A DNA stretch of 64,000 bases from Escherichia coli (GTDB lineage: Bacteria > Pseudomonadota > Gammaproteobacteria > Enterobacterales > Enterobacteriaceae), in assembly GCF_024502345.1 (NCBI RefSeq), contig NZ_JALDNN010000003.1, one strand, 5' to 3'. A model generated the notes under the pieces. The model had not been told where the DNA came from, ran no database searches, and saw nothing but the letters and a program-made list of their open reading frames with translations. The translations under genes were made by a program, and so were the position numbers. Positions 5,917 through 26,510 of the stretch are shown in pieces. The number at the start of each line of letters is the position of its first letter. Position 1 is the stretch's first letter.

Positions 5917-6101
5917 AAAAAACTCCTTCCAGGTATGTGAGCTTATTATATCAATACGGACTTTGCCCCAAACAACCCGACTCGAAATATTTTGGAAATT
6001 ACTCTAATAACTAAAAATGGCACCCGGAAAATAGAATGAATTTATTTTAAGCTTGCCGAACATGGCTGGCGGCGGAATTAAATTTGGGTAATGACTCCAA
6101 C

Positions 6102-6605
6102 TTATTGATAGTGTTTTATGTTCAGATAATGCCCGATGACTTTGTCATGCTGCTCCACCGATTTTGAGAACGACAGCGACTTCCGTCCCAGCCGTGCCAG
6201 GTGCTGCCTCAGATTCAGGTTATGCCGCTCAATTCGCTGCGTATATCGCTTGCTGATTACGTGCAGCTTTCCCTTCAGGCGGGATTCATACAGCGGCCAG
6301 CCATCCGTCATCCATATCACCACGTCAAAGGGTGACAGCAGGCTCATAAGACGCCCCAGCGTCGCCATAGTGCGTTCACCGAATACGTGCGCAACAACCG
6401 TCTTCCGGAGCCTGTCATACGCGTAAAACAGCCAGCGCTGGCGCGATTTAGCCCCGACGTATCCCCACTGTTCGTCCATTTCCGCGCAGACGATGACGTC
6501 ACTGCCCGGCTGTATGCGCGAGGTTACCGACTGCGGCCTGAGTTTTTTAAATGGCGGAAAATCGTGTTGAGGCCAACGCCCATAATGCGGGCGGTTGCCC
6601 GGCAT
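6102..6605 (-). CDS. insB: IS1 InsB frame (expressed as the InsAB' frameshift fusion)
   Basis: Canonical InsB sequence that overlaps insA in the -1 frame. Confidence 0.9.
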
Positions 6606-6799
6606 CCAACGCCATTCATGGCCATATCAATGATTTTCTGGTGCGTACCGGGTTGAGAAGCGGTGTAAGTGAACTGCAGTTGCCATGTTTTACGGCAGTG
6701 AGAGCAGAGATAGCGCTGATGTCCGGCAGTGCTTTTGCCGTTACGCACCACCCCGTCAGTAGCTGAACAGGAGGGACAGCTGATAGAAACAGAAGCCAC
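6524..6799 (-). CDS. insA: IS1 InsA
   Basis: [43 protein letters not shown]... is the canonical InsA sequence. Confidence 0.95.
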
Positions 6800-6952
6800 T
6801 GGAGCACCTCAAAAACACCATCATACACTAAATCAGTAAGTTGGCAGCATCACCGAAAATAAAATAGAGAGAGTTTTCAATCCGCATGACTTTAAAAAAG
6901 ACAATTTTTAGAAATAAGCCGGATAAAAAAATAGCTTTATCCGGCACTCATA

Positions 6953-21153: not shown

Positions 21154-22324
21154 CTACTCCCAGCGATAAGGGGTAAAATAGTCCTCGTTAACAGCAAGAA
21201 ATTCGGTCAGGGAATGCATCGCCTTCGTGTCATATGCCGTCACAATAAAACGGTATCCGTCCACCGTTTCGATGTAGCTGATCCCCCGTGGCGTGCAACT
21301 GGATTTCACAACTTCCGCCGTCATCATAAACTGCCCTTGCGGGAATTCCGGTGACAGGTAGATAAAGCCAGTGGTGGCTGATGACGGGTTGGCATTCATC
21401 AGCACGCTGTTAAATTGCTTTCCGTGCCGCGCCGGAATCAACGCGCTCCCCGCTGTCGCCTGAGTCATCAACTGGCGGATCAGGGTTTCCTCTTTATCTG
21501 AGCTGTAGGCGCGAACATCATTTTCAGCCCCGGAGCGTGAGTAGACGCCGACATGAGCAAGACGTCGGTACTCGTTACGCATATAGGCATGACAGGATGC
21601 ACCGGCTCGCCCCTGAAGAGTGACGCCAAAGTCTTCACATAACATCAGTACCTGGCGCAGGTTTTTGTCATAGACCGTGGCAGAGAGCGCCAGGTTATAG
21701 CTGATGAATGTCAGCTCAAAAACCCGGGTATGTGCGTCACTAAGGTGTGCCTCCATGCGGATCACTGGTTTCTCCGTCATTGGAAACGGCGTACCGGCCA
21801 AGCAGTACGAGGTAACATCGCTAAAACACTCGTCGATCACACTGGCAATGACCGTATCGGCGTCAATGACAGCCGGAGCTGGAACATAAATCTGAAACTG
21901 TCCTTCAGTGCCCGGTTGGATCAGGACGGGGTATAGACGCGGGGAATTGAGTTGTTCGCAGTCGGCATTGATCAGTTCTGTCCAACCGGGTTTTCCGGTG
22001 GGAGCATCAAGGCGAAGACCCAGGTTATCGCAGAAGTCGACGATCTGGCGGGAGTGCTCCACCATCACTGCCCCGGAGAGTGTCAGACCGTGCGTAACCA
22101 TCTGCATCTCACTCGTCCGGGTCTGGGAGTTCTGGGACCAGGGCTGTAATGAAAGCGTCGTCCGACTTAAGGAGGGAATGATGGTTTCATTCAGAGGTTC
22201 AATAAGCTGGCAATGCGCATACAGCCGGGTGGCGAGGAAGTCAAATATGAAGCTTGCCTGTTGTTTTGTGCTGGCCTGAATATAAAACATCGCATCCATG
22301 CCTGAATCCCGGGATGAAATACCG
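21154..22324 (-). pseudogene. IS1-interrupted gene for a roughly 394-aa protein of unknown function
   Basis: The reading frame continues across the IS1. The original first codons, ATG AAA CTT TTC GGT ATT TC, lie at 23112-23093. The 9-bp duplication gaaataccg sits at 22316-22324 and 23093-23101. Confidence 0.75.
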
Positions 22325-22379
22325 GGTGATGCTGCCAACTTACTGATTTAGTGTATGATGGTGTTTTTGAGGTGCTCCA

Positions 22380-22655
22380 GTGGCTTCTGTTTCTATCAGC
22401 TGTCCCTCCTGTTCAGCTACTGACGGGGTGGTGCGTAACGGCAAAAGCACCGCCGGACATCAGCGCTATCTCTGCTCTCACTGCCGTAAAACATGGCAAC
22501 TGCAGTTCACTTACACCGCTTCTCAACCCGGTACGCACCAGAAAATCATTGATATGGCCATGAATGGCGTTGGATGCCGGGCAACAGCCCGCATTATGGG
22601 CGTTGGCCTCAACACGATTTTACGTCACTTAAAAAACTCAGGCCGCAGTCGGTAA
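22380..22655 (+). CDS. insA: IS1 InsA
   Basis: Canonical InsA sequence. Confidence 0.95.
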
Positions 22656-23077
22656 CCTCGCGCATACAGCCGGGCAGTGACGTCATCGTCTGCGCGGAAA
22701 TGGACGAACAGTGGGGATACGTCGGGGCTAAATCGCGCCAGCGCTGGCTGTTTTACGCGTATGACAGGCTCCGGAAGACGGTTGTTGCGCACGTATTCGG
22801 TGAACGCACTATGGCGACGCTGGGGCGTCTTATGAGCCTGCTGTCACCCTTTGACGTGGTGATATGGATGACGGATGGCTGGCCGCTGTATGAATCCCGC
22901 CTGAAGGGAAAGCTGCACGTAATCAGCAAGCGATATACGCAGCGAATTGAGCGGCATAACCTGAATCTGAGGCAGCACCTGGCACGGCTGGGACGGAAGT
23001 CGCTGTCGTTCTCAAAATCGGTGGAGCTGCATGACAAAGTCATCGGGCATTATCTGAACATAAAACACTATCAATAA
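22574..23077 (+). CDS. insB: IS1 InsB frame
   Basis: Canonical InsB sequence. A few substitutions distinguish it from copy A. Confidence 0.9.
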
Positions 23078-23120
23078 GTTGGAGTCATTACCGAAATACC
23101 GAAAAGTTTCATTTTTTACC

Positions 23121-23417
23121 TTAATGGATGAGCGATTTATAATCATGCGCCGACAGGTGGACGTTATGTACGCCATCGTTCCACTCAAAGAATAGCCGAT
23201 ATTTTGAATTAACTCGAATGGAAGAATACCGGTTTGCGGTCATTCTTAAGCGTTCGTACCGCAAACTACCAGATAACAATTCGCGTTCGTTTTTAACATT
23301 ATTTAACGTTTCCAGTCTGCATGAAATCGCATTAATCAGTTCAGCAGGAATGCCTGCCGTGGATTTTCCATTACGGAAAAACTTTTCCAATCGCCTGTCT
23401 TTAAATGAATGGATCAT
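23121..23417 (-). CDS. HigB-like (COG3549 'killer protein', RelE superfamily) toxin homolog, 98 aa
   Basis: MIHSFKDRRLEKFF..G...GIPA....I..RL...........L....S.RVN..YRLFFEW..G....V.L..HDY follows the HigB pattern. The usual HPLKGDR segment is replaced by ERLRMTANR. Confidence 0.6.
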   Translation of the reverse strand: MIHSFKDRRLEKFFRNGKSTAGIPAELINAISCRLETLNNVKNERELLSGSLRYERLRMTANRYSSIRVNSKYRLFFEWNDGVHNVHLSAHDYKSLIH

Positions 23418-23480: not shown

Positions 23481-23948
23481 TTACATCCCGAGGATTCTGG
23501 CTGCGACCGTCAGTTGTTTATCACTTAATGGAAATTTGCGTGATAACGTCGACTTCAGGCTGTTCAAAAAACTGTTCTCGCCGTCTTGCTGCGTGATGGC
23601 GTCCACCAGTTCTTGGTGGTTCTGACACCAGAGGTTGAACGCGGAAGTCTTTGATTGAACAGCACGTTGACGCTCTGCTGCCTGAGCGGCTGAGATCTTG
23701 CGAGCAGCTTCTGGGTATATGCGATACAGTGCAGTCAGGGTGTAACAGGTACGGGTAGTGACCAGGCTATAGCCAGTGGCATTACAGGCAATACAGCGGC
23801 TCTTATAAAAGTGATTGCGTTCGCCACGTCCATTGCATTTATTGCAAGTAACACGGTAAATATATTCCCCGGTGCCTTTTACTGAATCAATACACTTAAT
23901 CTTAGCGTTATCGATTGCCATTCCGCTACGGTCAAAGTATTTATCCAT
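23481..23948 (-). CDS. protein with a DnaJ-type CxxCxGxG zinc-finger pair, 155 aa; paralog of 44649-45356
   Basis: Contains CNKCNGRGE...CIACNATGYS. The C-terminal region resembles that of the 235-aa ORF. Confidence 0.6.
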   Translation of the reverse strand: MDKYFDRSGMAIDNAKIKCIDSVKGTGEYIYRVTCNKCNGRGERNHFYKSRCIACNATGYSLVTTRTCYTLTALYRIYPEAARKISAAQAAERQRAVQSKTSAFNLWCQNHQELVDAITQQDGENSFLNSLKSTLSRKFPLSDKQLTVAARILGM

Positions 23949-23977
23949 TTTTGATTCCTCAGGTTTGGTCTGAAGTA

Positions 23978-24013
23978 ATAATGACAGATTGGCCTCGCTG
24001 GCTAATAACCTGA
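23978..24013 (-). promoter_or_regulatory. putative promoter of the TTATTAG family (TCAGGTTATTAGCCAGC, TTAGCC-N16-CATTAT)
   Basis: The 17-nt motif is identical to the one at 25671-25687. It lies about 50 nt upstream of the 23948 start. Confidence 0.5.
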
Positions 24014-24661
24014 ACGAACGTTTTTTGAAAATAAATCAGGAAGGATGATTGAGATGATTTATATATGCAGGATTCAATTTTAATGGAGGGTATTTTCAGA
24101 ATTATCTGTTTACAAAAAACGAAACAAATCCTAATGAGGCATTTATTGCATCACAATAAAAGTGATTGCTTTTCACTCATTTGAGTAGCGATGCTTAAGT
24201 ATTTATCCGTTTTAAGGTATAACAGCAGCGTGATACGACTCAGGGAATGCCTGTCCGTCACCTTAATGATGCTTTACTTCCGGTTGCCGAAACAGTCCAT
24301 ATGGCTGACATGTATTACACGCACGGTCTAACGCAGTTCCGGGGGGTGGCACAGCGGCGTGATGCCGCTTTAATCTGGAAAACGCAGGCATCTACTGGTG
24401 CCTCAGGATCGCGGCACTCGCAAGCTGAAACACCAGAGCCTGTTCGTCTTCCGGCTGTATCGCTCGTCCCCGTCTACAAAACCCGTCTCATCCGCAGGTA
24501 TCGCTGGCGCACTCCCAGACGGTTAGAGGCTTTCGGGAACTGCCTGGGTCAAAGAACACCGGCGTTCAGGTAGCTGTTGAAATGGACATCTACACGTTTT
24601 TGTTCAAGTGATTCAGTTGTGGTGAGGGCATAACGGGTAATGCCCTCCCGTGAAGCCCTGA

Positions 24662-24676
24662 GAAAAGTTACTTTTC
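24662..24676. promoter_or_regulatory. perfect GAAAAGTWACTTTTC box
   Basis: Reads GAAAAGTTACTTTTC, about 70 bp upstream of the 24747-24778 promoter candidate. Confidence 0.6.
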
Positions 24677-24746
24677 CAGGATTAATGCAGTCTGGCTTTT
24701 AATATAAATTCAGGGGATATTTTTTAAAAAAAATACCTGTCGTCAA

Positions 24747-24778
24747 CTTATTAGAAAAGTAAGTCAAAATGCTAGAGT
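24747..24778 (+). promoter_or_regulatory. putative promoter of the TTATTAG family (CTTATTAGAAAAG, TTAGAA-N16-TAGAGT)
   Basis: Same TTATTAG core and 16-nt spacing as the other sites, 30 nt upstream of the 24808 ATG. Confidence 0.45.
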
Positions 24779-24807
24779 GTTCTCATTCAAAAAGAGGAGA
24801 ACTAACC

Positions 24808-25584
24808 ATGCCAAAATATTTGTTACCTGCCGAGCTTGCGGAAATTGTTTGTGGATTACTGGTGCAACCAGCATTATTGAATGAATTAAAAACACCAGCC
24901 ACGCATAAAGCATTTATGCAGGACATCGGCGAGCTGGTGGCGAAACATTGCGGCGGTCAAATTGACGGCGTGATCATGCCTGAGGTACGCGATGAAGACA
25001 GCCAGGCCGATTACCTGACATCTCCAGATGAAACCCCTTATATTGTTGTCTCTCCTGGCCAGGACATGCACTCCCTCACAGATAACGTCTGGCGTCATCA
25101 TGCCCGGGATGGCTGGCTTGACCATATCAAAGGCAGTGTCGAAGAAAGCCCTGATGAACTGCCGACCCACAAAGAGTGCGCTGTACGCCGCTACACCCTC
25201 CAGCGTCTGCTCCTTCAGGAAGAAACCAGCCATGCTAATCTGCCAGTACAGGTGGTGCGGATGTGTGAGTACAGCACCGACGATGTTGAGCAGACCGATT
25301 CTTCAGCAGAGTTTAACGTCACAATGGCGCTCGGTGGTCATGCCATGCTGGCAGTAAAAGATACAGATTCCCGTCTGGTGATGGCCCTGACACTCTTGAT
25401 TGAAAATGGAGTTCCCTCTGTCCACGTTAATGCGGGTGACACTGATCCTTCAGTTCTGCACATCCGGGCAGCTCACGGTGGTCTGGTTCTTTCAACCGAC
25501 TCCCTTAATCATGATTTCAGTATTTCGCCCTCTGACCAGTATACCTACGGACGCCCTGGATTATTATTGAAAGCCGCCTACTGA
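24808..25584 (+). CDS. hypothetical protein, 258 aa, tandem paralog A
   Basis: AGGAG lies 8 nt upstream of the ATG. Homologous end to end with 25734-26510, for example LAEIVCGLLVQPALLNEL vs LATIITALLVKPELLGEL. Confidence 0.7.
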   Translation: MPKYLLPAELAEIVCGLLVQPALLNELKTPATHKAFMQDIGELVAKHCGGQIDGVIMPEVRDEDSQADYLTSPDETPYIVVSPGQDMHSLTDNVWRHHARDGWLDHIKGSVEESPDELPTHKECAVRRYTLQRLLLQEETSHANLPVQVVRMCEYSTDDVEQTDSSAEFNVTMALGGHAMLAVKDTDSRLVMALTLLIENGVPSVHVNAGDTDPSVLHIRAAHGGLVLSTDSLNHDFSISPSDQYTYGRPGLLLKAAY

Positions 25585-25733: not shown

Positions 25734-26510
25734 ATGGCTAAATTAATTTCGACGCGTGAACTGGCAACAATTATTACTGCATTACTGGTAAAACCAGAAT
25801 TACTGGGCGAGCTGGATTCCCCAGAAAAACATCGCGCCCTGATGGAAGATCTGGGGCGTGTTGTGGCAGAGCATTGTGGCGGTAATGTCACTGAAATCGC
25901 ACTACCGGAGACCGATGGTACGGCTGCTGAAGGCGCGTTGCAGAATGGCCAGCCCGTCCGCTATCTGGAAACCAAAGAAAGCTCTCCGTATCTCATCGTA
26001 CACCCTGACGCCTCACTGCCGTCGGTGACGCAAAACGTCTGGATGCACGCTGATCATGATGGCTGGGAAGAGCATTTCAACGGAGAGACCGATGCCCTGA
26101 CTCCAGAGATGAGCGAGCAGTTCCGCCAGCAGGTTTATGCACTGCTGACGCCGGAATCCCATACCACCTCTTCAGAAATGAGACTGACTTTGCAGGACTG
26201 GCAACTGGGTGAAGCCGAGATCCCAGAAGAAGACTGTCAGCCCTACCAGGTGAAGGTGTTAGCAGAAAATAAAAACGTTCAGTGCGAAGTGACGAATGAA
26301 ACCGGCACCACGTGTTTCGGCCTCATTTTGGAGATCGACCGTGGTGTACCGACGCTGCACATTGATACGGGCAGTGATTCACTGCTGCACATTCACGCGG
26401 CACATGACGGCCTGGTTCTGACACCGGATGCACCGAGCCACAGATTTGAAGATGCTCCTGTAGATCGCTTTTCTTATAACAGCCCGTCCCTGTTGGTGCC
26501 TGGGGTGTAA
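25734..26510 (+). CDS. hypothetical protein, 258 aa, tandem paralog B
   Basis: See 24808-25584. GGGGA RBS. Confidence 0.7.
   Translation: MAKLISTRELATIITALLVKPELLGELDSPEKHRALMEDLGRVVAEHCGGNVTEIALPETDGTAAEGALQNGQPVRYLETKESSPYLIVHPDASLPSVTQNVWMHADHDGWEEHFNGETDALTPEMSEQFRQQVYALLTPESHTTSSEMRLTLQDWQLGEAEIPEEDCQPYQVKVLAENKNVQCEVTNETGTTCFGLILEIDRGVPTLHIDTGSDSLLHIHAAHDGLVLTPDAPSHRFEDAPVDRFSYNSPSLLVPGV

Follow-up and report, generated by a model that had tools for sequence, protein, structure and literature searches.

A HigB-family protein encoded in a conserved three-gene operon of IncHI plasmid backbones, and an IS1 insertion that splits its large partner gene

What keeps a HigB-like toxin in check when the gene that follows it encodes no HigA antitoxin but a large protein of no known family, and when this gene has in addition been cut in two by an insertion sequence (IS)? 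The question is raised by a locus on contig NZ_JALDNN010000003.1 of Escherichia coli (assembly GCF_024502345.1), of which a stretch of 64,000 nucleotides (here called the window) was analyzed. In this study, we closely examined three neighboring genes of the window, here named U, T, and B in their order of transcription, of which T encodes the HigB-like protein and B is the gene interrupted by IS1. We found that U-T-B is a conserved three-gene operon of the backbones of IncHI plasmids, including R27, pHCM1, and their relatives. The family of T itself is known (PF05015), and the operon in which this HigB-family protein is encoded is uncharacterized.

The T gene (positions 23121 to 23417, minus strand) is intact and encodes a protein of 98 amino acids, for which a preliminary description of the locus had noted a HigB-like pattern. 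Profile searches bear this out and place the protein in the RelE superfamily. Residues 4 to 90 of T cover positions 2 to 90 of the 91 positions of the PF05015 profile (HigB-like_toxin), with an E value of 3.3e-16 and a score of 60 bits (cut-off, 27). Furthermore, T matches PHROG 3066, annotated as "toxin of TA system" (E = 1.8e-18), and the HigB protein of P. vulgaris in the structure 4MCT (4MCT_B; E = 3e-5). These profile matches assign T to the HigB-like family. Its sequence is that of the allele WP_000581856.1, which R27 and pHCM1-type plasmids carry, and shows 100% identity to T of the IS-free plasmid L001. In the alignment to 4MCT, residues R74, D92, and Y93 of T line up with R73, D90, and Y91 of HigB, numbered as in the literature on 4MCT and 4YPB. 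The same alignment confirmed an earlier observation that the HPLKGDR segment of HigB has diverged to ERLRMTANR in T. This divergence is no sign of toxin decay; the segment is a trait conserved throughout the clade and under purifying selection. The C-terminal half of the protein, SLRYERLRMT.NRYSSIRVNSKYRLFF.W.DGAHNVHLSAHDYKSLIH (residues 51 to 98), is nearly invariant between lineages, and among the three genes T is conserved best, with the lowest nonsynonymous divergence (dN) and a ratio of nonsynonymous to synonymous divergence (omega) of 0.03 to 0.18. The protein is basic, with an isoelectric point (pI) of about 10. To judge from its sequence, T is thus constrained and functional and no decaying toxin.

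A search for the T-B pair without IS1 in other genomes revealed it in every close relative and in most of the distant ones. All 14 loci from genomes, plasmids, and assemblies had the order U-T-B, as did 17 of the 18 metagenome loci that were long enough to judge. This order is kept in the most divergent lineage, L039, where T, U, and B show only 57, 37, and 30% identity to the window, respectively, and it is stable despite flanking genes that differ between the lineages. Wherever the synonymous divergence (dS) could be estimated, omega ranged from 0.03 to 0.33 for the three genes, which indicates purifying selection on all of them. T is 100% identical in R27 (NC_002305), and the whole cassette is 100% identical in pHCM1 (NC_003384). 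In the plasmid database PLSDB, the cassette occurs in 275 plasmids and is uninterrupted in 270 of these; T is complete in 273 of 274, as is the 5' end of B, and disruption in complete plasmids is accordingly rare (1/274 for T and 1/274 for B). The earlier view of T and B as an unusual toxin-partner pair is correct in that the partner is large and acidic, lacks a helix-turn-helix (HTH) domain, and belongs to no known family. It falls short in that the unit has a third gene, U. Nor is the pair rare: R27, pHCM1, and about 275 PLSDB plasmids carry it as part of their backbone cargo.

T and B are tightly linked. At their junction (23113 to 23123, minus strand), the stop codon of T is overlapped by a Shine-Dalgarno-like TAAGG, followed by a spacer of 8 nucleotides (nt) to the start of B, an arrangement whose sequence has the layout of translational coupling. 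The gap measures 8 to 10 nt in seven loci and 15 nt in L039, and in each of them a Shine-Dalgarno sequence coincides with the stop codon of T or follows it closely. This close spacing of 8 to 15 nt with a Shine-Dalgarno sequence is found in all lineages except that of the metagenome locus L060, which is discussed below.

How B was interrupted in the window can be read precisely. The IS1 copy (22325 to 23092, plus strand) is 768 bp long, has intact inverted repeats, and contains intact reading frames for insA (22380 to 22655) and insB (22574 to 23077), which are transcribed in the sense opposite to that of the operon. Its left end (IRL) abuts the remainder of B, and in related records the neighboring match is labelled "IS1-like element IS1B family transposase". 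Both flanks carry the perfect 9-bp target-site duplication GAAATACCG (copy 1, 22316 to 22324; copy 2, 23093 to 23101), at the coordinates given in the preliminary description. Excising IS1 and one copy of the repeat restores an open reading frame (ORF) of 393 amino acids, starting with MKLFGISSRDSG... / MKLFGISSRDSGMDAMFY..., and the reconstructed 80-nt junction is matched exactly in the IS-free plasmids L001, L015, L018, L030, and L033. This exact match demonstrates a genuine, precise transposition into a known allele and excludes a chance repeat; in length, inverted repeats, insA and insB, duplication, and a site that is empty elsewhere, the element has all the features of an IS1. As described before, the partner gene is split near its start, with the cut at codon 7, and its ATG (23112 to 23110) lies 8 nt past the stop codon of T. 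The length of 394 amino acids previously assigned to it was an artefact, because the ORF had been counted from a TTG inside IS1.

Beyond the element, a 5' stub of B (23093 to 23112, minus strand) remains, which consists of codons 1 to 6 and two bases of codon 7 (MKLFGI-S) and, in our reading of the B frame, runs on into IS1 to give a peptide of 13 amino acids. The identical IS1 allele was found in one further public contig, OGEB01000092.1, and was absent from PLSDB and from the complete E. coli genomes. The event is an ordinary, rare knock-out. The 3' end of T and the 5' end of B are relatively AT-rich, with a GC content of about 38 to 40% versus 53% for B. This AT-rich junction draws IS elements, and T and B can each be lost.

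A second IS1 copy is located at 6087 to 6854, inverted relative to the copy in B and with 6 mismatches to it. It lacks a matching 9-bp flanking repeat (left flank, ...AATTAAATTTG; right flank, GAAAATAAA...) and may mark the end of a deletion or rearrangement. The perfect duplication around the copy in B argues against an inversion between the two. Among the 69 ORFs of the window that were scanned, one matched PF03400 (DDE_Tnp_IS1; E = 1.8e-77); it stems from the second copy, and the insB ORF of the copy in B was outside the scanned set.

What does B encode? Its remainder in the window (21154 to 22317, minus strand) comprises codons 7 to 393 and the stop codon, the identity of the intact allele being known from comparison with the IS-free plasmids. 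The N terminus MKL(F/Y)G is kept in divergent homologs down to 30 to 39% identity, which identifies the upstream ATG as the true start of B. The Prokaryotic Genome Annotation Pipeline (PGAP) often starts the gene at M13 instead, giving a protein of 381 amino acids annotated as "flavin reductase" (e.g., WP_223417145.1, L001 6355 to 7500). This shorter start is contradicted by the conserved upstream N terminus, and the annotation was rejected because neither profile nor fold searches gave support for a flavin reductase or split-barrel protein. In line with the earlier statement that the partner has no recognizable domain, searches of Pfam, NCBIfam, PADLOC, PHROGs, and the PDB returned nothing for B. 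Its matches were confined to 17 clusters in a collection of 5.8 billion proteins and to 38 representatives in one of 1.84 billion, and all those bearing an organism name are enterobacterial. The protein is acidic, with a pI of 5.1 to 5.8 (about 5.3 for the window copy).

The secondary structure in the AlphaFold2 (AF2) model reveals a beta-beta-beta-alpha unit, R1, at amino acids 57 to 125 (21961 to 22167, minus strand), and a homologous unit, R3, at amino acids 186 to 245 (21601 to 21780, minus strand); the comparison of the two with hhalign yielded a probability of 96.8% and an E value of 2.6e-10. The C-terminal domain (amino acids ~290 to 393; 21157 to 21468, minus strand) is predicted to form a PH-like beta-barrel with additional helices. 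Its family has no Pfam entry and also occurs as stand-alone proteins of 120 to 145 amino acids in mobile elements (P0031 to P0053; loci L019, L020, and L021), which share the motif G..FDGVLQ...G.IFGS..FPDG.FI.TSEIV.VG...YIET..GSRYLI...N..YF.P.QWS and are encoded within gene arrays that are for the most part unannotated. Small uncharacterized proteins of phages, including T4-like ones, have a similar fold.

U, which opens the operon (23481 to 23948, minus strand), encodes a protein of 155 amino acids whose zinc ribbon has the pattern CxxCxGxG...CxxC and whose C terminus is helical. It matches DnaJ_CXXCXGXG weakly and PHROG 4046 with an E value of 5e-8. The protein is basic (pI ~9.4 to 9.8), and omega is about 0.1 to 0.2. 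U directly precedes T in every complete locus but L060, in which it is 1.1 kb upstream of T. When the upstream regions from six lineages were aligned, the element TTAGCC-17 nt-ATTATT (23977 to 24005, minus strand), located about 30 nt before the start codon of U, was the only conserved noncoding block ahead of the operon; its resemblance to the consensus suggests a promoter. The spacer between U and T measures 29 to 63 nt and is conserved at the Shine-Dalgarno sequence alone.

How might the three products act together? Tentatively, and with less than even confidence, we favor a joint model in which T is a HigB-fold ribonuclease (RNase), B a partner or modulator that replaces HigA, and U a regulator that keeps the operon low. 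T would represent a diverged but functional HigB/RelE fold, most likely a ribosome-associated mRNA endonuclease. B, whose gene stands in the position that higA takes in a canonical higBA operon, would be a co-translated, antitoxin-like partner and modulator of T with an extra PH-like domain, and the opposite net charges of the acidic B and the basic T hint at binding of the two. U would most likely bind nucleic acids and hold expression of the operon low. Loss of B could then be tolerated because T is kept at a low level or is only weakly or conditionally toxic. In the window, a single IS1 transposition has uncoupled B from T at codon 7, with U and T remaining wild-type.

Several observations weigh against this model. 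Both the window and OGEB01000092.1 have wild-type U and T next to a B that is interrupted at codon 7. In plasmid pYLMB165, ISVsa5 cuts B at codon 30, and T is wild-type; on a chromosome of Enterobacter hormaechei (L034), B ends after about amino acid 210, again beside a wild-type T. The locus L060/P0073 (1383 to 3711 of the metagenome contig Ga0302173_10000011), whose T is 55 to 59% identical, contains a U-like gene and an intact T but lacks B altogether. Furthermore, the family of the B C-terminal domain stands alone in two contexts, with no HigB-like neighbor. Finally, H54 of HigB is replaced by E55 in T (by K in L039) and H92 by K94, so that T can only be called a putative RNase; other RelE-family RNases have Glu, Lys, or Arg at these active-site positions.

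In a canonical higBA system, the antitoxin is indispensable as long as the toxin is intact, and the window, OGEB01000092.1, pYLMB165, L034, and L060 all appear to depart from this rule, even though fragments of B might still be expressed in the first four. A wild-type T next to a broken B is unexpected if B were the sole, essential antitoxin of a RelE-type toxin, and suggests that B is not strictly needed to keep T harmless. The preliminary description had left open whether B is dispensable for neutralizing T or is re-expressed from an internal start or by read-out from IS1; the broken-B alleles with wild-type T, together with L060, make the former the better supported of the two. B has also been deleted by ISApl1 in p99COLEC-1, where T carries the substitution H3Y. 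This change is not compensatory, since it is common in alleles with intact B. In L060, two unrelated ORFs of 84 and 218 amino acids, the latter acidic, lie between U and T, and an ORF for a TraR/DksA-type zinc-finger protein follows T; the 218-amino-acid product, encoded directly upstream of T, might be an alternative partner.

Could B nevertheless be the sole essential antitoxin, with the plasmid surviving by means of a truncated B that starts at M13, at M16, or at the TTG in IS1 and is expressed by read-through or from an IS promoter? We consider this highly improbable. The ORF is indeed open from the TTG within IS1, and M13 (22299) and M16 are candidate internal restarts just past the insertion. 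In pYLMB165, the transposase gene of ISVsa5 begins at the end nearest the B remainder, and L034 retains the N-terminal 210 amino acids of B. In IS10, the end at which the transposase gene starts carries the outward promoter pOUT. On the other hand, our reading of the sequence revealed no convincing outward or hybrid sigma-70 promoter at the B-facing end of IS1, and 768 nt of mostly untranslated antisense IS1 would be expected to be polar. The conserved MKLFG N terminus is lost from the remainder, and L060 does without any B. In addition, B of the window carries the substitution G310S (codon 21406 to 21408) at a near-invariant position, which is occupied by Gly in 12 of 12 homologs and in most of the stand-alone relatives (FNGV/FDGV motif). 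It is one of just 3 single-nucleotide polymorphisms relative to pYSP8-1 across 2.4 kb and may reflect relaxed constraint after the IS1 insertion or chance. B of the window would thus be little expressed, if at all. It is probably a pseudogene, because its expression would require both read-through of the antisense IS1 and a restart at M13 or M16, because a convincing promoter is missing, and because of G310S.

The same alleles also bear on whether T is a toxin in the first place. T might not arrest growth; U-T-B would then be a backbone module with another role, such as establishment, anti-defense, defense, or RNA regulation, and T an exapted or conditionally active RNA-binding protein with no dedicated antitoxin. 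We regard this as possible but doubtful. It would account for an intact T without functional B in several independent backgrounds, and without any B in L060, and it agrees with the replacement of both active-site histidines of HigB, with the position of the cassette inside an array of hypothetical genes, and with the likeness of the B C-terminal domain to phage proteins of no assigned function. A search of PADLOC-DB v2 gave no match for U, T, or B at E values up to 1, so U-T-B is no catalogued defense system. Against a harmless T speak its basic charge and its R, K, Y, and D residues, which are those of RelE-type RNases, as well as the tight T-B coupling, which is conserved across deep divergence.

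Natural knock-outs of T point in the same direction, as they fit a costly activity, but they fit neutral IS traffic as well. In one lineage, seen in 53 collection blocks, IS10/ISVsa5 is inserted at codon 86 of T, and B is intact downstream. Other alleles have fusions to IS26 ends at residues 40 and 74 or frameshifts in a run of A residues close to codon 43, and one is an in-frame deletion that fuses T(1-93) to the C terminus of B (records P0062, P0069, P0077, P0071, P0074 to P0079, and P0090; loci L026 to L029).

A decaying cassette was observed in Enterobacter asburiae (L038; JAPDCR010000025.1). Its B is frameshifted near amino acid 245, the called U is truncated N-terminally (104 amino acids), and T is an ORF of 98 amino acids with R68H, at an otherwise invariant Arg, and N80H.

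As noted in the preliminary description, no small HTH antitoxin gene follows T; no Xre/HigA-type family was detected among the 69 other ORFs of the 64-kb window, and the annotation of the syntenic plasmid pYSP8-1 shows no such gene up to about 20 kb away. Neither an Rfam RNA nor a tandem-repeat array able to act as an alternative antitoxin was found. Alternatively, U and not B might neutralize T, repress it, or both, in the antitoxin-first order usual for RelE/ParE systems and with a zinc-binding domain loosely like that of MqsA, and B would be accessory cargo or an effector. U accompanies T in every lineage with sequence upstream of T, including the B-less L060, and is the first gene behind the sole conserved promoter-like block. 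In the window it is intact and 100% identical, which would explain the loss of B beside a wild-type T. Still, we judge this role for U unlikely. The protein is as basic as T (pI 9.4 to 9.8 versus about 10), and the variable gap between the two genes offers no coupling. In L060 the two genes are parted by the unrelated ORFs of 84 and 218 amino acids, and in L038 T is still a 98-amino-acid ORF next to the truncated U, though with R68H. Furthermore, U is unlike MqsA, RelB, ParD, or any solved antitoxin, its best PDB profile match being the DnaJ zinc finger with an E value of 0.06.

Upstream of U, about 820 nt (23949 to 24768) contain no convincing ORF and separate it from a divergent gene at 24769. 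Conservation of this region between lineages is limited to the last ~60 nt before U, and it has no match in Rfam. The divergent gene (24769 to 25584, plus strand; 271 amino acids) and its neighbor (25734 to 26510, plus strand; 258 amino acids) resemble paralogues. Their products share AELAEIV.GLLV.P.LL.EL, HCGG, and a C-terminal LHI.AAHGGLVL, belong to no Pfam family, and are encoded beside the cassette in all close relatives. The cassette as a whole lies within a long co-directional array of small genes, mostly without assigned function, whose members include hok, DUF905, DUF957, DUF3085, and DUF6012 genes, an HNH gene, a PAPS-reductase-like gene, and methylase genes. The array adjoins genes for Ig-like proteins and for a replication initiator (Rep).

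Among known systems, higBA of Rts1/P. vulgaris is close to U-T-B in several respects. Both have a toxin of family PF05015 and of the same length class (98 amino acids for T, 92 for HigB), and both are plasmid-borne and toxin-first, with a basic toxin and the start of the partner a few nucleotides past the toxin stop codon. HigA, however, is an Xre-HTH protein of about 100 amino acids encoded directly downstream, whereas B has 393 amino acids, is acidic, lacks an HTH, and shows no detectable similarity to HigA. A third gene, U, with the sole conserved promoter-like element, precedes T; E or K takes the place of H54 and K that of H92; and B can be lost while T stays intact. Three-gene toxin operons with a separate regulator or helper are represented by the toxin-antitoxin-chaperone system TAC (HigB1-HigA1-SecB-like chaperone) of M. 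tuberculosis, by omega-epsilon-zeta, and by paaR2-paaA2-parE2. In U-T-B only T resembles components of these systems; U has a zinc ribbon and is not of the ribbon-helix-helix (RHH), HTH, or SecB-like type, and the roles of U and B are those proposed here. The mqsRA system likewise combines a RelE-superfamily toxin with a zinc-binding protein, but U shows no similarity to MqsA in the PDB profile search, is encoded upstream of the toxin, and has no complete HTH.

In type II toxin-antitoxin networks, toxin families swap unrelated antitoxin domains. A known toxin fold beside an unrelated neighbor, in a conserved two-gene arrangement, would fit such partner swapping, although B is far larger than typical antitoxins, has several domains, and is dispensable in natural alleles. 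No paper in the literature library searched mentioned the protein accession, and keywords for toxin-antitoxin systems of IncHI plasmids yielded nothing on the cassette there. Going further, U-T-B could be an undescribed three-component module, in which control of a HigB-fold RNase lies with a large two-repeat protein, and not with a small DNA-binding antitoxin, and the PH-like domain of the large protein, shared with stand-alone proteins of phages and other mobile elements, senses a phage, host, or conjugation cue, so that T is released conditionally in an abortive-infection or plasmid-establishment device; we consider this elaborate version improbable.

IncHI plasmids such as R27, pHCM1, and the carriers of mcr-1, tet(X4), and NDM are major vectors of multidrug resistance, and for the majority of their backbone genes no function is known. 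Since about 98% of the 275 complete carrier plasmids keep the cassette intact and its genes are under purifying selection, the cassette serves the plasmid. It is widespread on clinically important plasmids and experimentally tractable, and the natural IS1, ISVsa5, and ISApl1 alleles provide ready-made knock-outs of B. Should T prove to be an active RNase controlled by a novel type of partner, the HigB family would gain a new architecture for an antitoxin or sensor, and a domain family found across phages and plasmids would receive its first functional assignment. A harmless T would be a clear case of exaptation of a RelE-fold protein and would caution against labels such as "type II toxin" and "flavin reductase" that are given automatically.

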